A stretch of DNA of 64,000 nucleotides. It comes from Desulfoluna sp. Lineage in GTDB: Bacteria > Desulfobacterota > Desulfobacteria > Desulfobacterales > Desulfolunaceae. The notes below the pieces were generated by a model, which was not told the origin of the DNA, ran no database searches, and saw only the letters and a program-made list of their open reading frames with translations. Location: assembly GCF_030145185.1 (NCBI RefSeq), contig NZ_JAQYWB010000026.1, forward strand, positions 7,454 to 71,453. Reading direction: 5' to 3'. Made by a program: the position numbers and the translations under genes. The first letter of the stretch is position 1; every line of letters starts with the position of its first letter. Below, in pieces: positions 18,801-64,000 of this stretch.

Positions 18801-20438
18801 ATGTTCGAATCTGTACCATCCTGGTGGCACGCCACTGCCGCAAACGACGCTCCCGTCGATATTCGCAAGGCCCTTGAAACCATTGACCGCCCCTTCTACC
18901 TGGTGGACACCGGCAACGGGCCGGAGGCCCACACCTCGGGAGAGGTCCGCGTCGGATGCGGAAAACCCGGTCATGACTGGCTGCCGGCCCTGGCCACGGT
19001 CCGTCCCCTGCCCATCTCCAAGCTCGGATCCCGCAGCTTTCTCAAGCGGCACGGGTTGCGTTTTCCTTATATCATGGGGGCCATGGCCAACGGCATCACC
19101 AGCGAAGCCATGGTGGAGGCGGCCGGGAAAAACGGCATGATTGGATTTTTCGGTGCCGGAGGCTGCAGCGTCACCCGCATTAAAGAGGCCATCTCCCGCC
19201 TCAAAAAAGCCGCCCAGGCCGACCCTTTCCCCTTTGGCTTCAATTTTCTTCATCACCACGGCGCCCCCGAAGCGGAGATGGTCCTGTGTGAGCTCTACCT
19301 TAAGGAAGAGATCCGCTGCGTCAGCGCGGCCGCCTTTCTCACCATGACCGCCGCCCTGGTGCGCTACCGGGTCACGGGCATTCACCTGGGAGCGGATGGG
19401 CAGGTGGTGGTGCCCAATAAAATCATCGCAAAGCTATCTCGGGAAGAGCTCGCCGAAAAATTCATGACCCCTCCCCCGGCCGAGATCCTGAAAAAGCTTC
19501 ACGCCCGGGGCCTTATCTCCGACACCGAGATGGCCCTGGCCCCCCGCATCCCCATGGCCGATGATATCACCGCAGAGGCCGACTCTGGAGGTCACACAGA
19601 CAACCGCCCGGCCCTGGCGCTTCTCCCGGCGATTCAGGCGGTCCGGGATCGGCTGATGGAAACCCACGGGTACCCGGAAAAAATCGGGGTCGGACTGGCC
19701 GGAGGCATCGCCGCCCCGGTCTCTGCCGCCGCCGCCTTTGCCATGGGCGCCGACTACATCTTAACCGGCACCGTCAATCAGGCCTGCCGAGAGGCTGGCA
19801 CCTCGAACAAGGTGAAGGCCCTGCTGGCCCAGGCCCGCCAGGCCGATATCACCATGGCTCCAGCCGCCGACATGTTCGAGATGGGCGGAAAAGTCCAGGT
19901 CCTGAAGCGAGGCACCCTGTTCGCCATGCGCGCCGCCCGGCTCCACGCCATCTACCAGTCCGCATCCAGCCTTGAAGACATCCCCGAGGCCGATCGCGCC
20001 TTTGTCGAACAGAAAATTTTCGGTAAAACCCTCAACGAGGTGTGGCAAGACACGAAACTGTTTTTTGAGGACCGGGACCCCACCCAGGTCATCAAAGCCG
20101 AAACCAACCCCCGGCACAAAATGGCCCTGGTCTTCCGAAGCTACCTCGGCCAGGCCTCCCTCTGGGCCATCCAGGGCCTTACGCAAAAATCCGGCGACTT
20201 CCAGATCTGGTGTGGACCGGCCATCGGCGCGTTCAACGCCTGGACCCAAGAGACCCCGCTTGCCAGGCCCGAAGGCCGGGACGTCACCACCGTCGCCTTC
20301 AACCTGTTGGTCGGCGCCTCCGTTGAGGCCCGCTCCCGCATCCTGGCCAGCCAGTTCCCCAGCCTTGCCGGAATCCGGTTTCTGCCCAGACCCCACGCCG
20401 AACTCTCCGGGTGCTCGATAGAAATTCATTCAGCTTAG
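18801..20438 (+). CDS. PfaD-family enoyl reductase-like protein (polyunsaturated fatty acid/polyketide trans-acting ER homologue)
   Basis: 545 aa with RPFYLVDTG...FPYIMGAMANGITSEAMVEAAGKNGMIGFFGAGG, characteristic of PfaD / 2-nitropropane-dioxygenase-like FMN enzymes. No PKS genes adjacent. Confidence 0.7.
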   Translation: MFESVPSWWHATAANDAPVDIRKALETIDRPFYLVDTGNGPEAHTSGEVRVGCGKPGHDWLPALATVRPLPISKLGSRSFLKRHGLRFPYIMGAMANGITSEAMVEAAGKNGMIGFFGAGGCSVTRIKEAISRLKKAAQADPFPFGFNFLHHHGAPEAEMVLCELYLKEEIRCVSAAAFLTMTAALVRYRVTGIHLGADGQVVVPNKIIAKLSREELAEKFMTPPPAEILKKLHARGLISDTEMALAPRIPMADDITAEADSGGHTDNRPALALLPAIQAVRDRLMETHGYPEKIGVGLAGGIAAPVSAAAAFAMGADYILTGTVNQACREAGTSNKVKALLAQARQADITMAPAADMFEMGGKVQVLKRGTLFAMRAARLHAIYQSASSLEDIPEADRAFVEQKIFGKTLNEVWQDTKLFFEDRDPTQVIKAETNPRHKMALVFRSYLGQASLWAIQGLTQKSGDFQIWCGPAIGAFNAWTQETPLARPEGRDVTTVAFNLLVGASVEARSRILASQFPSLAGIRFLPRPHAELSGCSIEIHSA

Positions 20439-26123: not shown

Positions 26124-27266
26124 CTACAAAGCTTGAATCCACACAAAGCAACTCGCCCAGCGGGTGTCGCGCAGCTGTTCCAAAAGATCGCCGTAGCTGA
26201 AAGTGCGTCCGTCGTTCTCGGACAAGGGGGTGACAGAGATGGGGGCGTGGGGAGTCCCGGAATGTATTGGCTCAGGATCCCATCGGACAAGAAGCATATC
26301 CCGGCTTCCGTGAGCGGAGTCAGGGATCGCTTCAAGCCCTTCGTAAAAATTTTCATCCGGGAACGTAAGGGGAGAAAGCGAGTCCACAGGCCGATTCGTC
26401 ATCAGAGAGAGCACCTGCCCCGACTCGGAGACATGATAAAGGGAAAGAGAACCGGTGGGCTCAGGCGGAGAGAGATGAACCTGATAAGGGCTACCGGACG
26501 CCAGAAGGCCCTCGGGGGTGACCCCTATGCGCAAACCCTTATTCTCAGTCTTTTCCACAAAGCAGAGACGAAACCACGCATCGGTGTCGACAGGATAAAC
26601 CGCAGGGTCAACCCGAAGGGTCCACCCCCCGTGTCGCCTGACCAGATGAAATTGCGAGGGAAAGACCCCGGCGGTCGCCAGCTCCCGTGCGAGGGGAAGG
26701 GCCGCCTTATAGCCCTCGCCAAACGCCAGGGGCCGTTTTAAGAGGTGTTCACGGTCCGCAGCCACCTTTTGAAAAAGGGTGCGGTTGTCGTAACCCAGGG
26801 CCACATAATACCGACCCGAAGCCCGGGTCCGCTTCACCATCGTAAGATGACTCAAGCTGACCCGGCTCTCCAGATCCACACGAAAGTGAGAAGAAAACAT
26901 ACGGCCTGAAGCGCCCCGCTCCGCAACCACCTCACCGGTAGAGTGAACGCTCACCCGAAGAGCCTCGGCAATCTCCCGCGACGCCTCCGACCGGGCCGAG
27001 GCCATGCTGTCTCCCTGCCCGTATCCCACCAGCACATGCGCAGGTGCCCCCACATCCCTTGCCACATACCACCCCGGCCCGCCACACCCCTGAAACAAAA
27101 ACAAAAGCAAAAATATGCCTGCAGAGAAATGCCTCCGGCGGCCCTGCCGGGGGCCAAACTTTTGATCCGCCTTCGCCCGAGGGCTACGGCGCGACAAGAA
27201 AGTTTGACAAACAGGTTTTAAAAACTGATTTTTCGATTTCGAGATAAAATCATTTCGACTCGGCAT
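26124..27266 (-). CDS. putative lipoprotein (LPP20/DUF4384-like), start uncertain
   Basis: Signal peptide with lipobox (RRRHFSAGIFLLLFLFQGC). The N-terminal ~45 codons of the track ORF lie inside a repeat element (27126-27266); an alternative TTG start exists near 27197. Confidence 0.6.
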   Translation of the reverse strand: MPSRNDFISKSKNQFLKPVCQTFLSRRSPRAKADQKFGPRQGRRRHFSAGIFLLLFLFQGCGGPGWYVARDVGAPAHVLVGYGQGDSMASARSEASREIAEALRVSVHSTGEVVAERGASGRMFSSHFRVDLESRVSLSHLTMVKRTRASGRYYVALGYDNRTLFQKVAADREHLLKRPLAFGEGYKAALPLARELATAGVFPSQFHLVRRHGGWTLRVDPAVYPVDTDAWFRLCFVEKTENKGLRIGVTPEGLLASGSPYQVHLSPPEPTGSLSLYHVSESGQVLSLMTNRPVDSLSPLTFPDENFYEGLEAIPDSAHGSRDMLLVRWDPEPIHSGTPHAPISVTPLSENDGRTFSYGDLLEQLRDTRWASCFVWIQAL

Positions 27267-27776: not shown

Positions 27777-29528
27777 CTATTCAAAGCGCAATCTCATGTG
27801 CAGGTTTCCCCTGGCTGTAGGCTCCTGGAGTTGTGTGCCGCCCCGGCTCCGGCTGATGCGGCGGGTTTGTTGGGAAACCCGTTGGTAAAGGCTCTCCAGG
27901 GTGTCGTGATCGTTCATGAGCTCTTTCATGAGAAAATAGCTAAAGAGACGATGGCCTTTTTCGGGGTACATGTTGGAGAACTGGCGATCGGTACCCGCGG
28001 TGATTACGGCCATGCGGCGGTCATCGAACCCGATGGCTTTTGGTACCAGCCGTGTGGCGGCCCGGCCGTTCCCGAAAACCGAGGTCCCATCGGCCACACC
28101 GGTAAAACAGCTGTCCATAAAGACCACGATCTCGGCGGCCCGGCTTTGGCTCAGGGTCTGAAAGAAGGTATCGATCCGGAAAAAAGGTGACTCGTGAATA
28201 AAATCCGGGGCCTGATCCCGGGCCAGGAGATACGGAGCGCCCCCGTCTTTAAGTGAAGGGAGGCCGTGACCGCTGTAGTAGACGTAGATGCGATCGCCTT
28301 CGCCCACATCACGCAGGAGAAACCGGAGCTCATCTTGAATGGAGGCAGCGGTGGCCGGAAAGGTCCGCCCTTTGAGCCCCTTGATCTCTGTGGTTCCGTC
28401 ATCATTCAGCAAAAAAACGTTTTCGGCCGGGACGCCCAGGCGGTTCATGGCCACCCGGGTAAAAAGCTCGGCGCTGCGTCTTGAGTAGGCAATGGGGCTG
28501 GCCTTGTCGTAAGCCTCGATGCCCATGGCAAAGAGCCAGGTGGTGAGATGGGGATCGAGAGGGCGACTCGATTTCAAACGGCCGGGAAGGTCATCCTCAT
28601 AAGAAAGGGGGTCTTTTTCATTCCGGTCATTCGAAGCGCCAAGGGCCGCTTTGGCCAGCACGCGCTCGCCGACCGATGCCAGGGGCACCTTTTTTTCAAA
28701 GGTTTTCCACCCTGGCTCGTCCAGGGCCAGAAAGTCAGATCGAAGATCCGGGGAGAGCTTGAGAAAAGAGGGACGCCGTTCAGATCCCAGGGTCTTAAAG
28801 GCCATGACCTCCTCAGGTTTGAGGCCAAATTCCCGGCGATACCAGGGCATCAGATCAATGGACACAGCAGCCGCCCCACCGCCGCATGCGGCGGTGACGT
28901 AAAGGGTCCCCGATTCGAGCAGGGTGTCGGTCAAAACGGGTCGATACCGACCGTTTCCATAAGCCCTTATCGCCACCGGACGTCTCTGCTCATCCAAAAC
29001 CGTCACGAGGGTTTCATCCGACGCATCAAAGGTAAGGATTTTTCCGGTTTCATCGTTTATTTGACGGCGATCCAACACCTCATAGTCCACAGGTGCCCAG
29101 AGGTAGCCCATCAAAAGCCAGGACCTCAGGTGGCGGTCGTAGAGTCGTTGCCGCATCGCCTCTTCCCCGTCGGGATCTCCCCACCCGGTAAAGAGCCTCT
29201 TGACGCACCAGACGGGAGTCACCACGAGCCCGGCCACCGTCGAGAGAGCGGTCCCCAGGATCAACCGGGCATCCGGTTCGTAATCGTAAATGTCCAGACG
29301 AGTGACCTCTTTGGCCTGGACCTGAATTTTTGCCACCCGTTCAGGGACATGTTTTTCCGTCATGACCCGAAAGCCCTCGTCTTCAGGGATCACGGTCACC
29401 TGGCAGGCGGCCAGGGCCAAGCCCTGGGCGGCCCCCCAGGGTTCGCTCTCATATTCAAAGGAAAAACGCCTGCCGGAGCATGAATTAAAAAGAAAAAGAA
29501 CAATCAGTATGGGCAAAACACGTTTCAC
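27777..29528 (-). CDS. caspase-domain (peptidase C14) lipoprotein with ~330-aa N-terminal domain of unknown function
   Basis: N-terminal signal peptide/lipobox (MKRVLPILIVLFLFNSC). C-terminal caspase His and Cys dyad contexts YYSGHG and FMDSCFTG. Confidence 0.75.
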   Translation of the reverse strand: MKRVLPILIVLFLFNSCSGRRFSFEYESEPWGAAQGLALAACQVTVIPEDEGFRVMTEKHVPERVAKIQVQAKEVTRLDIYDYEPDARLILGTALSTVAGLVVTPVWCVKRLFTGWGDPDGEEAMRQRLYDRHLRSWLLMGYLWAPVDYEVLDRRQINDETGKILTFDASDETLVTVLDEQRRPVAIRAYGNGRYRPVLTDTLLESGTLYVTAACGGGAAAVSIDLMPWYRREFGLKPEEVMAFKTLGSERRPSFLKLSPDLRSDFLALDEPGWKTFEKKVPLASVGERVLAKAALGASNDRNEKDPLSYEDDLPGRLKSSRPLDPHLTTWLFAMGIEAYDKASPIAYSRRSAELFTRVAMNRLGVPAENVFLLNDDGTTEIKGLKGRTFPATAASIQDELRFLLRDVGEGDRIYVYYSGHGLPSLKDGGAPYLLARDQAPDFIHESPFFRIDTFFQTLSQSRAAEIVVFMDSCFTGVADGTSVFGNGRAATRLVPKAIGFDDRRMAVITAGTDRQFSNMYPEKGHRLFSYFLMKELMNDHDTLESLYQRVSQQTRRISRSRGGTQLQEPTARGNLHMRLRFE

Positions 29529-32164: not shown

Positions 32165-32276
32165 CAGGCTAAAATGACACATAAGACATCCTCACGGGCA
32201 GGCCTGTGCCCTCAGATCGCCTGCGAGGTGTCACCACCATTGATTTGTCAGACAGTTACCTTAAAGGAGTATGACC

Positions 32277-32762
32277 ATGGATAAGTGCCCATGCGGACTT
32301 GATGCGGCTTACGATACATGTTGCGAACCCATCATCAAAGGCGAGAAAGCCGCCGAGACAGCAGAGCAACTCATGCGTGCCCGCTACAGCGCCTATGCCA
32401 AAGTGGAAACCGATTTTCTCCGGGACTCCATCCGTCCGGACAAACGCCACACCCATGACGAACGCCAGACCAAAAACTGGGCGGCCAAGTCCGAATGGTT
32501 CGACCTCGAAGTGGTCAGCACCGAAAAAGGGGGCGTCGATGACGACACCGGTCGCGTAGAGTTCATCGCCAACTATGCCATTAAAGGCGAAAAAGCGCGC
32601 CACCACGAGCAGGCCACCTTTGTCAAAGTCGACGGTGCCTGGTACTTTGATGACGGCGTGGGCGTGGTTCCCGAGACCCTGGTTCGCCAAGGCCCCAAGG
32701 TAGGCCGTAACGATCCCTGCCCCTGCGGCAGCGGCAAGAAATTTAAGAAGTGCTGCGGATAA
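32277..32762 (+). CDS. YchJ-family protein with N- and C-terminal SEC-C metal-binding motifs
   Basis: CPCG ... [14 protein letters not shown] termini. RBS AAGGAG 7 nt before the ATG at 32277. Confidence 0.8.
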
Positions 32763-32888
32763 AAAGGCGGCCTTCCGTTACCCATTGAGGAAAAGCCCGC
32801 GTAACGCGGGCTTCTCCTCATCCCTCCCGCGGAGCCCCGTTCCACCACCCCGCTGCCCCCCTGAATTTATATTATTAAGGAGTCAATG

Positions 32889-33227
32889 ATGATTGAGTGG
32901 GCTTATCTTCGAAAAGGCTGAACATCCTGCACCAAAGCCCAAGAGTTACTTGGGTCCCTGAATCGTCTCCCCCAAGAGATCACCGACGCACGCAAAGAGC
33001 GCATTGACGCTGAGGCCGCCTGGGCCATCCTCTCCTCACGCCCTCTGGTGGTGACGGCCCGGGGGAAGAAAACAGTGGAATGGCACCCATCAGATGCCAA
33101 CAAAGAGGCGCTGCTCAAAGCGGCCATGGGCCCATCCGGCAACCTGCGAGCGCCCACCCTCCGCCTGAAAAACTTGATTGTTGTTGGGTTTCACGAAGAT
33201 TTTTATAAGAGCACCTTCATCTCTTGA
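32889..33227 (+). CDS. ArsC/Spx-family thiol-redox protein with in-frame TGA (probable selenocysteine, U-T-S-C motif)
   Basis: RBS AAGGAG, then ATG, then MIEWAYLRKG-TGA(32919)-TSCTKAQELL...LRAPTLRLKNLIVVGFHEDFY in one frame through TAA/TGA at 33225. The TGA sits where Spx/ArsC has the first Cys of CTSC. A hairpin lies 15 nt downstream. The ORF track does not show it. Confidence 0.65.
32937..32955 (+). promoter_or_regulatory. bSECIS-like stem-loop (GCCCAAG-aguua-CUUGGGU) downstream of the recoded UGA
   Basis: 7-bp stem including one G-U pair. The apical loop contains G and U. Starts 15 nt after the UGA. Confidence 0.5.
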
Positions 33228-33280
33228 ACCCGATGCCCTGAAGAAACGCCCCGGGCATCCAACCCCAAAAAGGAAGAAAC

Positions 33281-33874
33281 ATGATGAAATCTTTTGCCCC
33301 GTTTCTCATCGGCCTCTTTTCCCTGTGTGCCTTCACCGCGTTTGCCTCGGACGCCCCCACCCTGAAAGACACCCCGTCCAGCGAACTCACCGCAGCGGCC
33401 ACGTCCATGGACTCTGCCCAGACCGCCGTCGAGGCCAAAGTCGAAACCAACGTCGAGGCCCTCCCAGAGACGATGACCGCCCCAGAGCCAGAAACCCCCG
33501 CAGCCATGATGGATGAGATGATTCCGGCCCCTCCTGAAGAGATGACCCCGGCCCTGGCAAATGTCGCAGAAATGGTCATCGCAACGGCCATTGCCGATCG
33601 TGAGCCCGTAGAACCCGGAATCCTCTTCACCACGAATACCGAGCGCCTCTACTGTCACAGCCGCATCACCTCCATTGCTCCGACCACCATCACCCATATC
33701 TGGTATCGTGAGGGAGAACGTGTGGCGGAGATTCCTCTTCAGATCGGCGCCGCCTCGTCCTGGCGCACCTGGAGCTCAAAAGCCATTTTCCCAGCCACAC
33801 CCGCCGCGTGGCGAGTGGAAATCGTCGCAGAAAACGGGGTTCTTTTGTCCCAGACCGATTTCACCGTAGAATAA
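33281..33874 (+). CDS. secreted protein: signal peptide, acidic Pro/Glu/Thr-rich linker, C-terminal beta-rich domain (DUF2914-like by recollection)
   Basis: MMKSFAPFLIGLFSLCAFTAFA signal peptide. C-terminal CHSRITSIAPTTITHIWYREGERV...RVEIVAENGVLLSQTDFTV. Confidence 0.6.
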   Translation: MMKSFAPFLIGLFSLCAFTAFASDAPTLKDTPSSELTAAATSMDSAQTAVEAKVETNVEALPETMTAPEPETPAAMMDEMIPAPPEEMTPALANVAEMVIATAIADREPVEPGILFTTNTERLYCHSRITSIAPTTITHIWYREGERVAEIPLQIGAASSWRTWSSKAIFPATPAAWRVEIVAENGVLLSQTDFTVE

Positions 33875-40729: not shown

Positions 40730-41120
40730 CCCTCCGGCCTATATATCCCCTCTAAACAGACCCTTCCTTCAGGACACCTGTCCTTTCTCCTTTTTCCACC
40801 CGGGCATGTCCTGCTGAAACAAAATGGGCGTTTGCCTTCAATTTGCTTGAAAAAGAATGTGAAATGACTTATTTAGAGAGTTTTTGACCCGTTGTCATCG
40901 GTGGTCCCAGAGAAGTCGAAAATCGACAAAATCGATGGGAATGGGTCGAAAAGAAAGCGACGATTGCGGGAAACATCAGCGGCGCCCAATATCTCTGCCC
41001 GAATGGCACTCCCGACGCCACATCCCATCCCGCCCGTCGCCCCAATGGCAACCCCCGCGTCACCCGGATATCCGGGGGTCGCTTTTCATGATTTCTTCAG
41101 TTTCAGGTAATACTAAAAGC

Positions 41121-42719
41121 ATGTCTCACGAAAATAACACGCCCTTCGCACGGGAAATCAATAAGCGCCGAACCTTCGGCATCATCAGCCACCCCGACGC
41201 GGGTAAAACCACGTTGACGGAAAAACTCCTCCTCTTTGGTGGGGCGATCCAGCAGGCAGGCGCCGTAAAATCCCGAAAAACAGACCGTCACGCCACCAGC
41301 GACTGGATGGCCATCGAACAGGAAAGGGGCATCTCAGTCACCAGCTCGGTGATGAAATTCAACTACCACGATTACGACATCAACCTCCTCGACACCCCCG
41401 GCCACAAGGATTTCTCCGAGGACACCTACCGTGTCCTCACGGCGGTGGACAGTGCCATGATGATCATCGACCACGCCAAAGGGGTGGAGACCCAGACTGA
41501 AAAGCTCATGGAGGTGTGCCGCATGCGCAACACCCCGATCATGACCTTTATCAACAAACTGGACCGGGACGGCATGGAGCCCCTGGACATTCTGGCCGAT
41601 ATTGAAGAGAAACTTCAGATCGAGTGCACCCCCCTCACCTGGCCCATCGGCATGGGCAAACGCTTCAAGGGGGTCTACAACCTCTACAAAAAAGAGCTCC
41701 ATCTCTTCTCTGCGGAAAAAGAGACCCTGGCCAAGGAGGGCATCCGCATTCAGGATCTCTCCGACCCCAAGCTCGACGAGCTGCTCGGCAGCCAGGCCAA
41801 TGACCTCCGAGATGACATCGAGCTCATCGAAGGGGCCGCCGATCCCTTTGAGCTGGAGCTTTACCTTAAGGGCACCCAGACGCCGGTCTTCTTCGGCAGC
41901 GCCATCAACAACTTCGGTGTTCAGGAGCTGCTGGACGCCTTCGTGGAGATGGCTCCCACCCCCATTACCCGAAAGGCCATCACCCGAGAAGTGTCTCCTT
42001 ACGAAGAGGAGTTCTCCGGCTTTGTCTTTAAAATTCAAGCCAACATGGACCCATCCCACCGGGACCGCATCGCCTTTTTCCGCATCTGTTCGGGAAAATT
42101 CACCCGGGGCATGAAGGTCAAACACCACCGCATCGGCAAGGACATCACCATTGCCAACGCCACCATCTTCATGGCCCAGGATCGAACCAACGTGGAAGAG
42201 GCTTTCCCCGGTGATATCATTGGGATCCACAACCACGGCACCATTAAGATCGGGGACACCTTCACCACCAAAGAGGCGCTGAAGTTCACCGGCATTCCCA
42301 GTTTTGCCCCGGAACACTTCAAACGGGTGCTTTTAAAAAACCCATTGAAAACCAAGCAGCTCCAAAAGGGCCTTCTCCAGTTGGCCGAAGAGGGGGCCGT
42401 TCAGGTCTTCCGCCCCTTGCGCGGAAGCGATTATATCCTGGGTGCCGTCGGAGAGCTGCAGTTTGAAGTGACCATCGCCCGACTTAAAAACGAATACAAC
42501 GTGGATGCCGCCTACGAGCATGTCAATATCGGGGTGGCACGATGGATTGAAAGTGATGACAAAAAAAAGATGGATGACTTCAAAGAGGGCCAGAGGGCCA
42601 GCCTGGCCATGGATGCCGAAGGGCACCTCACCTTTCTGACCACCAGCGAATGGCAACTGGGATTTGTAATGGAGCAGAACCCCGACATTGTGTTTAACAA
42701 GACACGGGAATACGCCTGA
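41121..42719 (+). CDS. prfC: peptide chain release factor 3
   Basis: GTPase G1-G4 motifs ([17 protein letters not shown]) and RF3-wide similarity at 532 aa. Confidence 0.92.
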
Positions 42720-45700
42720 TGAAAGCGCAAAAATACCGAGAGATACCCTACAACTACACCTCTGCCGACGATGAACTGGTGGTCACCTACCTGTTTGACG
42801 CAAAGGTGTGGAACCGACTCCTGGAGCTGAGGGGCAAACGTATCACCGGACGTTCCGCCAAGCTACTCATGCGGCTGATGGGTGATATGTTTATCTTGAA
42901 GCGCAACCCCTTCCTCTTTGACGACCTGGCCCATTCACACCGTCGACGCCGCCTGTTCCTCAAGACGGCCACCAACGACCTGGCCATCATCGAAAAAATG
43001 GCAGACCAGAAAGAGGTCCTGGAGATCACCGGGCGATGCCGCAAGGCCCTGAAAGCGCTCAACGACTCCCTGAAAACCCACAAGCGTCAAAGTCGCTACA
43101 TCAAACGCGAACTGGGGGCCATCATTGGCCGAGAGAACGTCTGCTTTGAGCCCTTCTCCATCATCAGCCACGCCACGGACGCCACGGACTGGCGACGCCA
43201 CCTTGCCGTGGCCGTCCTGCGTCCCACCCGGGAGTCCCAAATAGCGCCCCTGATAAAAGCCGTCGAAAAGCTCGGTCTTTCTATCATCCCCCGCGGTGCG
43301 GGCACCGGCCTCACCGGGGGCAGCGTGCCGGTCTCTGAAGGCTGCGTGATGATCAACACGGAAAAACTCAACCGCATTCGGGGCACCAAACACCTTCCAG
43401 CGGCTCCCGGTACCGGCATGAGCAGCATGACGGTCCTTGAACTGGAAGCGGGAGTCATTACCCAGACGGCCATGGCCTACGCCGAAGCCGAAGAGCTCGT
43501 CTTTGCCACCGACCCCACCAGCTCCTGGGCCTGCACCATCGGCGGCAACATCGCCGAAAACGCCGGCGGTAAAAAAGCGGTGATGTGGGGCACCGCCATC
43601 GACAACCTGGTCTCCTTCCGCATCGCCATGCCCGGCGGACGCCTCATGGAAGTACGCCGGGAAGACCACCCCATGCGAAAAATCCTGCCCGAAGACACCG
43701 TTATCTTTTCCGTCCGGGATGAAGAGGGGCAGGTTCGAAAAGTCATCACCCTTGCCGGAACGGAAATCCGCAAGGTGGGGCTGGGAAAAGACATCACCAA
43801 CAAGGCCCTGAAGGGCCTGCCCGGTATTCAAAAAGAGGGATGCGACGGCATCATCACCTCGGCAGAGTTCATCCTCTACCCCCCCTTTGAGTACAAGACC
43901 ACCTTCTGCCTGGAATTCTTCGGCAACGACATGGAAGAGGCCAGCGAAGTCATTGTCAAGATCTCCAAGGAGTTCAAAAACAATGGCAAAGAGGCCCTCA
44001 TCGCCTTGGAACACTTTGATGACGAGTACATGCACGCCATCAACTACAAGGTGAAGGCAACGCGAAAAGGGAGCCCCAAAGCCGGCCTTCTCATCGACAT
44101 GGTGGGGCACAACGAAGAGGAAATTACGCGGGGGGTCCAACGCCTTCAGGATCTGCTGGTCCCGTACGAAAACACCGAACTCTTTGTGGCCCGGGACGAA
44201 GACGAAGCCGAGCGCTTCTGGAAAGACCGCAAGAAACTCGGGGCCATCGCCAAGCGCACCAACGCCTTCAAGCTCAACGAAGATATCGTCCTCCCCCTGG
44301 ACGCCATCGGCGCCTTTACCCGTTTTGCGGACCTTTATAACCTGGAAGAGAACCGCTACAACCAGGCGGACTTCGTCCACGCCACCCTGTCCTACCTGGA
44401 ACACGCCGAACCCATCGAAGATCCGGAATGGCTTGAGGCACGTATTCCCAAGGCCCGTGAAATCTGCACCGAAGCCCTGACCGCCACCCGGGAAGCCACG
44501 GCGGCAGAGCTCAAAGACGGGGCTCAGGCGAAACAGCTGTTGGCCGAGCTCCTGGAGTTCTTTCGCGGTTACAAGCGTATCTCCGGAGACTTCCAGCGTA
44601 TCTTTAAAGAGGCACGGGCCCGCCAGATCATCATTGCCACCCACATGCATGCGGGTGACGGCAACGTCCACGTCAACATTCCTGTCTTCTCCAACGACAT
44701 GGAGATGATGAAGCGCGCCACCAAAACGGCCGATAATATCATGGAAGAGGCCGTCCGCCTGGGCGGCGTGGTAAGCGGTGAGCATGGCATCGGTATCACC
44801 AAGATGAAATATCTGGAGCCGTCCCTGGCGAAAGACCTGGCCGCCTACAGAAAAGAGGTGGACCCCAAAGGGGTGATGAACCCCGGCCAGCTCGTAGATC
44901 CCACCATTCAGTCCAAGGTCTATACGCCCTCTTTCAACCTGCTGGAGTTGGAAGCGAGCATCCTGCAGCACGGGTCTCTGGAAACCCTGGCGGCCAAGAT
45001 AGCCACCTGCGTGCGCTGCGGAAAATGCAAGATCGATTGCTGTACCTTCTACCCGGCCAAAAACATGTTCTACCATCCGAGAAACAAAAACCTGGCCATT
45101 GCCTCTCTCATTGAGGCGATCCTCTACGATGTGCAACGGTCCCACTCCACACGCTTCAAATTTCTCAAGCAGATGGAAGAGATCGCCGACCACTGCACCA
45201 TGTGCCATAAGTGCTTCAAGCCCTGCCCTGTGGACATCGACACGGCCGAGGTGTCTCTGATGGAACGGGAGATCCTCGTCTCCCGAAAATACAAAAAGAC
45301 CCCCCTGGCCACCCGGGCCTCTCTCACCTACCTGGAGACCCGGAACCCCCTGGCCAATGCCCTGTTTCGAAAGGGCCTCGTCACCTGGGGAGGTGCCCTT
45401 CAGCGGACCGGTCACAAGGTGATCAAGAGCATGGCACCTGTGAAGAAAACGCTGGCCGGGATTCAAGCGATTCAACTTCTTGAGTCTCCCATGCCTCACA
45501 CGCCTTCGGATACCCTGCGGAGTATTCTGCCCAAGTGCGGCACCAACCAGGCGCTGATCCTGAACCCGCCGGAGGAGACAGAACAGTCTGTCTTCTACTT
45601 TCCCGGGTGCGGTTCCGAGCGGCTCTTTTCAGATATTGCCAAGGCCGCCATCTATATCCTGCTCTCAGCTGGAACACGGGTGGTGTTGCCACCGCCTTAT

Positions 45701-46333
45701 ATCTGCTGCGGATTCCCCGCCAAGGTCAACGCCAAGACCGTCCAGCACAGCCAGATCACCTTGCGGGACTCGGTCATTTTCAGCCAGATCCGCGAAATGA
45801 TCAGCTACGTGGATTTCGATGCCTGTGTGGTGAGCTGCGGCACCTGCCGGGAAGCCCTGGAAGAGTTCGGGGCACCAGAAATCCTGGGCTGCAGAATCGA
45901 GGACGTCAGCCGATTTGCCCTGGAAAATGGCCTGGATGTCAAAGGAGGCAACAGCTGCCTCTACCACGCCCCCTGCCATGACTCCCTGGACGGGGAAGCG
46001 GCCAGCCTTCTGGAAGAGTTCACCGGATACTCCGTCGAGACCATCCCCTACTGCTGTTCGGAAGGGGGGACCCTCTCCATGAGCCGCCCCGACATCACCA
46101 ACGCCATGCTCCAGCGAAAACATGATGAAATCCAGCTGCGGACCGAGGGAAAAGGCAGAGAAACGACCCTTCTCACCAACTGCCCGTCCTGCATCCAGGG
46201 GCTGGGCCGAAATCACGACCTCGATATCATTCCCCGGCATCTGGCCGTTGAACTGGCCATCCAGACCGGCGGAAAAAACTGGGAAGAAAAACTCAAAGCC
46301 ATGGTCAAACAGGCCGAGGTGGTCACCTTCTAA
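42719..46333 (+). CDS. DUF3683 - FAD-linked oxidase - 4Fe-4S - CCG-domain fusion protein (YdiJ-like 2-hydroxyacid/D-lactate dehydrogenase type)
   Basis: 1204 aa. FAD-binding PCMH-type region (PRGAGTGLTGGSVP), ferredoxin-type Cys clusters (CVRCGKCKIDCC; CHKCFKPCPVD) and C-terminal Cys-rich CCG repeats. The start ATG overlaps the prfC stop (TGATG). Confidence 0.8.
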   Translation: MKAQKYREIPYNYTSADDELVVTYLFDAKVWNRLLELRGKRITGRSAKLLMRLMGDMFILKRNPFLFDDLAHSHRRRRLFLKTATNDLAIIEKMADQKEVLEITGRCRKALKALNDSLKTHKRQSRYIKRELGAIIGRENVCFEPFSIISHATDATDWRRHLAVAVLRPTRESQIAPLIKAVEKLGLSIIPRGAGTGLTGGSVPVSEGCVMINTEKLNRIRGTKHLPAAPGTGMSSMTVLELEAGVITQTAMAYAEAEELVFATDPTSSWACTIGGNIAENAGGKKAVMWGTAIDNLVSFRIAMPGGRLMEVRREDHPMRKILPEDTVIFSVRDEEGQVRKVITLAGTEIRKVGLGKDITNKALKGLPGIQKEGCDGIITSAEFILYPPFEYKTTFCLEFFGNDMEEASEVIVKISKEFKNNGKEALIALEHFDDEYMHAINYKVKATRKGSPKAGLLIDMVGHNEEEITRGVQRLQDLLVPYENTELFVARDEDEAERFWKDRKKLGAIAKRTNAFKLNEDIVLPLDAIGAFTRFADLYNLEENRYNQADFVHATLSYLEHAEPIEDPEWLEARIPKAREICTEALTATREATAAELKDGAQAKQLLAELLEFFRGYKRISGDFQRIFKEARARQIIIATHMHAGDGNVHVNIPVFSNDMEMMKRATKTADNIMEEAVRLGGVVSGEHGIGITKMKYLEPSLAKDLAAYRKEVDPKGVMNPGQLVDPTIQSKVYTPSFNLLELEASILQHGSLETLAAKIATCVRCGKCKIDCCTFYPAKNMFYHPRNKNLAIASLIEAILYDVQRSHSTRFKFLKQMEEIADHCTMCHKCFKPCPVDIDTAEVSLMEREILVSRKYKKTPLATRASLTYLETRNPLANALFRKGLVTWGGALQRTGHKVIKSMAPVKKTLAGIQAIQLLESPMPHTPSDTLRSILPKCGTNQALILNPPEETEQSVFYFPGCGSERLFSDIAKAAIYILLSAGTRVVLPPPYICCGFPAKVNAKTVQHSQITLRDSVIFSQIREMISYVDFDACVVSCGTCREALEEFGAPEILGCRIEDVSRFALENGLDVKGGNSCLYHAPCHDSLDGEAASLLEEFTGYSVETIPYCCSEGGTLSMSRPDITNAMLQRKHDEIQLRTEGKGRETTLLTNCPSCIQGLGRNHDLDIIPRHLAVELAIQTGGKNWEEKLKAMVKQAEVVTF

Positions 46334-62674: not shown

Positions 62675-63220
62675 GAAGATCACACCTTTGTTCAGAATTA
62701 ATGGAATCCGCAGCAACCCTGCTGCCCAGAATGTTAGGATGGCATCGCCAAAAATCGAACGGACGCCATCACACTCAAACATGCCGCCTTCCGTCCACCG
62801 TTGACCCCACGATGCTGTGATGAAGAGCGTTGACCTTTTAAAGAATGTAACCCGTGAAAATGGTGGCTCACCATGGAAAAAGGAGGTGTCATAAAGCTAC
62901 AAACGAAATGAAATTCAGAGAACGAAGAAAGCGATTCATTGTTGATATGCAACCAAAAGCCATCCAAAACTTACCTTGTTATTATAACACTAACCACGTT
63001 TCAATGTAAGTTCAATCTAATGACAAGGCCACCTGCCGCCCCCCACGCGATCTTCATTACCCACCGTATTTACTGGTAAATTACGAGGAGACACGACACC
63101 CACGCCAACCGGACAGACCTGTCACCCGGAGGCGGGCCAGCTCACCCACCCTTCTATCATGCCTTAATTAAACAAAAAAACCTCTGATCACTCAATCTAC
63201 AAGGACCTTTATAAAAAGAT

Positions 63221-63348
63221 TCCGGAGGCGTCCTACTCTCCCGCGCAGCTGCCCGTGCAGTGCCATCAGCGCAAAAGAGCGGGCCTTATCTCATGACTTG
63301 GCCGTGTTCGGAATGGGAACGGGTGTGACCTCTTTGCAATCACCACCG
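63221..63348 (-). rRNA. rrf: 5S ribosomal RNA (copy adjacent to degenerate 23S fragment; possibly itself degenerate)
   Basis: The reverse complement reads ...CACCCGTTCCCATTCCGAACACGGCCAAGTCATGAG...GATGGCACTGCACGGG...GCGGGAGAGTAGGACGCCTCCGGA, matching 5S helices and loops. Confidence 0.75.
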
Positions 63349-63427
63349 AAAAACGGTATATGCGTTTTTCGGATCATTCAATCAGGATATGGATTCAATA
63401 AAGCGCTCAGCATCTGTGTAGTAAGAT

Positions 63428-63930
63428 TGTGGCTAAGCCTCACGACCAATGAGTACCGGTAAACTGAACACATTGCTGTGCTTACACATCCGGCCTATCA
63501 ACCTCGTAGTCTTCGAGGTGTCTTCAGTCCGGCACTCAATTTCATGCTCAAACATGTAGCATTGACAGAGACATTACACGTCTCCTTCAACATACTGCTT
63601 AAGCGCAAAATTGAGTACCGGAAGGGATATCTAATCTTGAAGGGGGTTTGCAGCGATGATGCTTTCAGCGGTTATCCTTTCCGAACCGTAGGATGGGCAA
63701 AGCGCGAAGCGTGCCCATCTTTTACTTCCTGAAAACGCGACAACAGGAACACCAGAGATTCGTCCATTCCGGTCCTCTCGTACGAGGAACAGATCTCCTC
63801 ACCCAGTTTTATTATCTGGCCTCCGCCCACGAAAGATAGGGACTAAACTGTCTCATGACCTTTCATAAATCAGGCAAACCCAGCTCACGGACCACTTTAA
63901 TTGGCGAGCCGTCACCGCTGTATTTCGTAC
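63428..63930 (-). pseudogene. degenerate fragment of the 23S rRNA 3' end (domain V/VI incl. sarcin-ricin loop), not a full 23S gene
   Basis: The reverse complement aligns to GGCT-CGCCAATTAAAGTGG...GAGCTGGGTTT...GTCATGAGACAGTT...AGTACGAGAGGACCGG...TGAAAGCATC...GTTGATAGGCCGG...GTGAGGCTTA. The universally conserved A-loop and GGGUUUAGAACGUCGUGAGACAG segments are altered, and several insertions are present. It begins immediately after a terminator and is only ~500 nt long. Confidence 0.55.
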
Positions 63931-63933
63931 ATA

Positions 63934-63974
63934 CAAAACAAAAAAGGCTCTTGATGATTAAATCATCAAGAGCC
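63934..63974 (-). terminator. rho-independent terminator downstream of the 5S copy that runs off the window
   Basis: On the minus strand, GGCTCTTGATGATTTAATCATCAAGAGCC followed by TTTTTTGTTTTG. Confidence 0.65.
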
Positions 63975-63986
63975 TTTATAAAAAAA

Positions 63987-64000
63987 TCCGGCGGCGTCCT
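63987..64000 (-). rRNA. rrf: 5S ribosomal RNA, 3'-terminal 14 nt only (gene continues beyond window)
   Basis: TCCGGCGGCGTCCT matches the 3' end of the 5S at 63221-63234 with one difference. Confidence 0.4.

Follow-up and report, generated by a model that had tools for sequence, protein, structure and literature searches.

An in-frame TGA probably read as selenocysteine: a candidate UxxC selenoprotein of the ArsC-related NF041106 family in a Desulfoluna relative

Does a TGA codon lying in an otherwise open frame between two genes encode selenocysteine (Sec), and if so, what kind of protein does the restored frame specify? The locus lies in a 64-kb stretch of DNA (hereinafter designated the window) from a relative of Desulfoluna. 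Between a ychJ-like gene (32271-32762) and a DUF2914 gene (33281-33874), the ORFs in the relevant frame are at most 59 aa long, and without read-through the longest of them, 59 aa, opens with a GTG at 33048. A preliminary description of this DNA had noted the gap without an ORF and had placed in it an AAGGAG RBS, an ATG and a TGA at 32919, all of which are present. Our analysis indicates that the locus very probably encodes a 112-residue UxxC 'arsenate reductase-like' selenoprotein (NF041106), a distant branch of the ArsC/Spx/YffB proteins with a thioredoxin fold.

The read-through frame and its family

Reading through the TGA gives the translation M(M)IEWAYLRKG-U-TSCTKAQELL...FHEDFYKSTFIS, and the frame stays open for 101 further codons past the TGA, in agreement with the earlier proposal of one frame running through a single TGA (Table 1). 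Two adjacent ATG codons, at 32886 and 32889, could serve as the start. The ATG at 32889 has the better spacing from the RBS and corresponds to the only Met that the Desulfoluna orthologues have there; the ATG at 32886 is disfavoured because it is too near the RBS and is absent from the closest orthologues. An RBS-like motif lies 5' of the start in 73/79 homologues.

Table 1 Features of the candidate selenoprotein locus, in window coordinates
Feature	Position	Strand	Details
RBS AAGGAG	32877-32882	+	Read from sequence; 6 nt 5' of the ATG at 32889
ArsC-like selenoprotein CDS (candidate)	32889-33227	+	112 residues including Sec, then TGA stop
In-frame TGA, putative Sec codon (residue 11)	32919-32921	+	TGA in 81/81 sequences; TGC in Cys forms
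U-T-S-C redox motif (UxxC form of CxxC)	32919-32930	+	From translation
Putative bacterial SECIS hairpin GCCCAAG-AGUUA-CUUGGGU	32937-32955	+	Stem 32937-32943 / 32949-32955, loop AGUUA 32944-32948
Family signature MGPSGNLRAPT	33126-33158	+	Most conserved block
True stop codon, TGA	33225-33227	+	From translation

With the TGA read as Cys, the read-through protein matches the NCBIfam model NF041106 ('ArsC_rel_Se_1, ArsC family (seleno)protein') at 112.2 bits (E=1.7e-32; curated cut-off, 85 bits). The match spans the TGA and covers profile positions 1-107 of 107, so that the read-through protein is beyond chance: it belongs to a curated family across the very codon in question. TGA is also an ordinary stop codon in the window, terminating 13 of the 31 family-supported genes as well as the Sec gene itself, and the source organism uses the standard genetic code. 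Since TGA terminates translation at 33225 yet would be recoded at 32919, recoding must depend on local context. Elsewhere in the window no genuine TGA-interrupted coding frame was found; the candidates were antisense shadows and one upstream extension, that of a membrane-transporter-like ORF (1312-2952), which was rejected as spurious.

A protein search recovered 111 database relatives, the closest of which is 83% identical to the window protein, and their records illustrate how such a codon distorts annotation. N-terminally truncated gene calls account for 77/111 of them, and a further distortion, a false Trp at the Sec position, is found in 31-32/111. These Trp records represent TGA under a non-standard translation table, as verified on one contig (L083:109-447). 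True Cys forms are limited to 2/111 (hereinafter designated P0087 and P0070). The record of Desulfoluna spongiiphila is itself truncated, to 82 aa; its score of 75.3 bits lies under the NF041106 cut-off of 85, in keeping with its label of 'hypothetical protein'. The expectation that standard gene callers would miss this locus is thus borne out, in that the locus is either left empty or called in truncated form, as in those 77 relatives. The practical value of the present analysis lies accordingly in the correct annotation of the locus; it adds nothing new on how selenoproteins work.

Conservation of the TGA codon and of a downstream hairpin

From a scan of representative genomes, the best 80 of 168 loci (L001-L080) were kept for comparison; they come from Desulfoluna, other Desulfobacterales, Desulfuromonadales, Desulfurivibrio, SAR324 and related groups. 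Together with the window sequence, all 81 carry TGA at the aligned codon, flanked by conserved WAYLRKG and TSC, and the distance from the TGA to the signature block MGPSGNLRA is 69 codons in this set (68 in one locus). The Cys at position +3 of the UxxC motif is invariant in 79/79 sequences, and within the signature block the G and the G-N-L-R-A-P are invariant (alignments A1 and A3). Measured by column entropy, conservation sets in sharply with the Met codon. Over codons -9 to -1, the first two codon positions have an entropy close to 0 and the third one of 1.4-1.9 bits, a pattern indicating that the short 5' piece is translated in this frame. The 5' piece and the downstream part, whose relatedness had been raised as a point to check, therefore belong to one continuous protein, the 5' piece being under coding constraint.

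Cys-aligned homologues, another point raised in the preliminary description, were also found. Both P0087 and P0070 carry TGC at the codon aligned with the TGA and are members of NF041106, scoring 138.7 and 129.1 bits, respectively, above the cut-off. Judged from these records, the family appears to be almost always Sec-containing.

The proposed 7-bp stem-loop starting 15 nt past the UGA is present and constitutes the minimum free energy structure of a 57-nt segment (-9.8 kcal/mol). In the window sequence alone it is not significant: its z-score is -0.85, 37/200 dinucleotide shuffles fold as well, and the sequence ranks at 0.165 among its own synonymous recodings. Comparison was made on 78 distinct segments of 54 nt, which begin with the UGA and align without gaps. 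RNAalifold returned no consensus structure on these 78 segments, since the stem is formed in one of two registers depending on the subgroup; the structure was assessed instead by counting pairs explicitly and by testing against synonymous recodings. At the core pairs 22-34, 24-32 and 25-31, 77-78/78 homologues have standard pairing, and the pair 21-35 covaries (U-A in 35, C-G in 19 and G-C in 3 of the 78), column 21 being the wobble base of an Ala codon and column 35 the second base of the codon after a Leu. Some homologues lengthen the stem via a one-base bulge, and one subgroup (CCAGG...CCUGG type) pairs with a shift of one column. Compared with synonymous recodings of codons +5 to +13, native folds were on average 2.3 SD more stable (z -2.3), and the native sequence fell within the best 5% of its recodings in 62% of sequences. 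At codons +7 to +10 the third position has an entropy of only 0.1-1.0 bits, as against 1.4-1.9 bits in the flanking codons, and a G in the small loop (column 27) is nearly invariant among homologues. The hairpin is absent from both Cys forms, a weak control with n=2. An Rfam search of the whole window at the gathering threshold and of 32850-33050 at E<=10 gave no bacterial SECIS match, its only matches being rRNAs and chance snoRNA matches. With the comparative data, though not from the single sequence, the hairpin is convincing as a putative SECIS.

These observations bear on the other accounts that could be given of the TGA. A Cys-type ArsC-like gene could have become a pseudogene through one base change, from TGC or TGT to TGA, and the lack of visible Sec machinery in the window (see below) would fit such a nonsense mutation. 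Decay of this kind is at odds with a codon that is TGA in every one of the 81 sequences (the window and the best 80 of 168 loci) across many orders, with purifying selection on both of its sides and with a conserved hairpin 3' of it; the conservation data effectively refute the pseudogene account, to which we assign next to no probability. Alternatively, the TGA might be a genuine stop that closes a 10-residue leader peptide and is followed by a separate ORF, as the 80-90-aa products in many databases and the truncated calls for most relatives would suggest. However, the first in-frame start past the TGA in the window is a GTG 43 codons downstream, amino acid conservation runs straight on through TSC-K-AQE-L, and the truncated calls begin at varied, non-homologous positions and would yield products devoid of strand 1 and of the redox motif of the fold. 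Termination at this codon is thus extremely improbable.

The UGA could also be read without selenium, for example if a near-cognate tRNA, a suppressor tRNA or an alternative code supplied Trp, Cys or Gly, and the W given at this codon in 31-32 database records would at face value speak for it. The W is, however, the rendering of TGA under a non-standard table, as verified on the contig mentioned above, and TGA acts as a stop in 13 of the 31 supported window genes and at the end of the Sec gene. Moreover, where family members naturally have another residue here, it is Cys, and the conserved structure has both the position and the G-containing loop expected of a bacterial SECIS, so that we consider selenium-free read-through very unlikely.

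In the favoured reading, Sec decoding, the UGA at codon 11 would be read as selenocysteine during translation. The hairpin, with its small loop and conserved G, would recruit SelB and Sec-tRNA(Sec) to the ribosome, and the second UGA, at 33225, which has no such hairpin, would terminate translation. Insertion of Sec via SelB is suggested by the conservation pattern taken together with established bacterial Sec decoding.

Selenocysteine machinery and genomic context

The finding implies that the source organism uses selenocysteine. Within the 64-kb window there is no selA, selB, selD or tRNA-Sec: ARAGORN detected no tRNA, no SelA, SelB or SelD emerged when practically all large window ORFs were scanned against protein families, and a tblastn search of the window with E. 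coli SelA, SelB and SelD (approximate sequences) matched only the GTPase domain of RF3. The corresponding 611-aa GTPase (40884-42719), considered as a SelB candidate, was rejected as it is RF3. Thermodesulfobacteriota have been described as among the most selenoprotein-rich bacteria (PMC13188914), and on this basis Sec machinery is likely to be present in the source genome. A literature search for a link between Desulfoluna and selenocysteine found nothing relevant.

The closest of the best 80 of 168 loci are those of Desulfoluna spongiiphila, D. butyratoxydans and D. limicola, with 79% amino acid identity. The gene order helicase-YchJ-[Sec gene]-DUF2914-SPFH-zinc-ribbon is common to the window and Desulfoluna only, and the neighbouring proteins are 85-92% identical to their Desulfoluna counterparts, with the exception of the DUF2914 protein (51-66%). 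The window is accordingly assigned to a Desulfoluna-like member of the Desulfobacterales. The ychJ-like gene itself encodes YchJ_M-like and SEC-C domains. Within 2.5 kb of the Sec gene in the best 80 of 168 loci, no gene neighbour is common to the whole family. In the same set, a Cys-rich multi-pass permease is encoded near the Sec gene in 9/80 loci and a HesB/IscA-like gene in 6/80, and a ParC/GyrA-like gene lies upstream of it in 10/80.

The Sec gene may form its own transcription unit. A promoter scan of 32600-33400 found no promoter-like site and no sigma-70-like promoter, and a terminator scan of the same interval gave one weak terminator-like site, on the minus strand. GC-rich inverted repeats lie directly 3' of ychJ (AAAGCCCGCG...CGCGGGCTT, 32792-32813) and directly 3' of the Sec gene (GATGCCC...GGGCATC, 33232-33259), neither followed by a clear T-run.

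Several other features of the window deserve mention. A gene at 42719-46333 (+) encodes a 1204-aa protein with DUF3683, FAD-linked oxidase, 4Fe-4S and CCG domains. Some Fe-S oxidoreductases of this GlpC type are selenoproteins in Deltaproteobacteria; the 42719-46333 ORF contains no in-frame TGA. The gene at 18801-20438 (+) is of the PfaD family (576 bits against TIGR02814), PfaD being the enoyl reductase of polyunsaturated fatty acid / polyketide synthases. Two ORFs, at 26124-27266 (-) and 27777-29528 (-), encode 380 and 583 aa and have a coding-like composition and no Pfam match. At the far side of the window, on the minus strand, lie a 5S rRNA gene (63220-63350) and part of a 23S rRNA gene (63429-64000), of which the window includes the 3' end and which continues past the window end.

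Fold, putative function and relation to known proteins

The preliminary description had suggested comparison with Pfam PF03960. Here the result was negative: a Pfam scan of the read-through protein gave no family at E<=1, PF03960 included. Some relatives, such as P0104, do carry a precomputed PF03960 match. Searched against solved structures, the family profile matched Spx (E=7e-5), 2m46, a putative ArsC (1.2e-3), and YffB (1rw1; 1.6e-3), as well as the ArsC-related 2kok. In the profile alignment Sec is matched to Cys10 of the Spx C-T-S-C motif, which supports the earlier assignment of the TGA to the first Cys of that motif, and GNLRAP...VGF lies opposite GLLRRP...VGY of Spx, so that the proposed Spx/ArsC-like C-terminus also holds (LRAP...VGF aligned with LRRP...VGY).

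The AlphaFold model of the Cys form P0087 (pLDDT 93.6, pTM 0.87) has a thioredoxin-like core in which the CxxC precedes helix 1, the aligned Cys13 standing directly before helix 14-25. Top Foldseek matches of this model are Spx, YffB and ArsC-related chains (TM 0.52-0.57). Residues 55-68 of the model, which correspond to about 33045-33090 in the window, form a beta-hairpin with an invariant G-K-K motif between strand 2 and strand 3. In Spx and ArsC, this region contains only helices. Given Foldseek TM values to Spx and YffB of only about 0.55, the central subdomain of the family looks different, in the predicted model, from that of Spx/YffB.

The U-x-x-C motif would have a redox role analogous to that of the motif in CxxC and UxxC proteins of the thioredoxin fold. 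Sec11 and Cys14, at the N-terminus of helix 1, would cycle between the selenol/thiol and selenenylsulfide forms, and the protein would be a small redox enzyme or redox sensor. The TGA in 81/81 sequences (the window and the best 80 of 168 loci), the scarcity of Cys forms (2/111) and the fact that the nearest structures are those of Spx are the basis for a more specific proposal, namely that in sulfate- and metal-reducing bacteria the protein acts in the manner of Spx, as a redox sensor or regulator dependent on selenium, and not as a reductase; we regard this as unlikely, an outside chance. Alternatively, the protein may reduce another substrate. Under either the sensor or the reductase reading, the invariant basic motifs DARK, GKK and GNLRAP would form a binding surface.

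Among proteins of solved structure, Spx of Bacillus subtilis (PDB 1z3e, 6ghb) is the best relative both by profile and by fold. Spx of Bacillus subtilis is a redox-sensing regulator that binds RNA polymerase. Spx and the window protein have in common the C/U-T-S-C motif near the N-terminus and the LR(R/A)P...VG(Y/F)N block. The window protein nevertheless reaches only 11.7 bits against the Spx family model NF009885, whose cut-off is 152, and the Cys forms P0087 and P0070 are likewise far below the Spx cut-offs. The window protein is also about 20 residues shorter at the C-terminus, and the P0087 model has the GKK beta-hairpin where Spx has helices, with a TM of about 0.55. Spx is, in addition, a protein of Firmicutes.

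The R773-type ArsC proteins and the UxxS 'arsenate reductase 1' selenoproteins (pfam03960 / TIGR00014) belong to the same superfamily, and in them, as in the window protein, helix 1 begins at the nucleophilic Cys or Sec. The window protein has UxxC in place of the UxxS of arsenate reductase 1, and PF03960 gives no match to it. An hhalign comparison of the family profile (A3) with R773 ArsC (approximate sequence) yielded a probability of 0.2 and no significant alignment, so that the Arg60/Arg94/Arg107 triad cannot be placed; only via the Spx alignment can the nucleophile position and the LR-P arginine be mapped onto ArsC. The results with Pfam, the Spx model and R773 ArsC point to a distant member of the ArsC/Spx superfamily, and judged by these comparisons the protein is not an Spx orthologue, nor can it be shown to be an arsenate reductase. 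YffB (PA3664, PDB 1rw1) resembles it in length (about 115 aa) and fold class (profile E=1.6e-3; Foldseek TM 0.57), but is only 19% identical in the structural alignment and differs in the central subdomain.

The closest known system is the UxxC family itself. The statement in the preliminary description that ArsC-like proteins had been listed among bacterial selenoprotein families proved correct (PMC1794560, PMC2398784, PMC13188914). For Desulfotalea psychrophila, Zhang, Romero and Gladyshev (2006) reported a family of 'ArsC-like' selenoproteins, and the same 2006 listing includes a 'distant ArsC homolog' in Desulfuromonas acetoxidans and gives the 'ArsC-like' family for Deltaproteobacteria (PMC1794560). 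The family was subsequently listed as a UxxC selenoprotein (PMC2398784, PMC13188914), and both Zhang & Gladyshev (2008) and a selenoproteome review of 2026 call it 'arsenate reductase-like protein / Arsenate reductase 2' (UxxC); in this literature on the family we found no experiment on any NF041106 member. The UxxC family has thus been in the literature since 2006-2008, and the window gene is an annotation fix, not a discovery. It shares with NF041106 and the UxxC family the full-length HMM match, the UxxC motif, the position of Sec and the occurrence in Thermodesulfobacteriota, with no difference of substance, and represents a new sequence of an already catalogued family.
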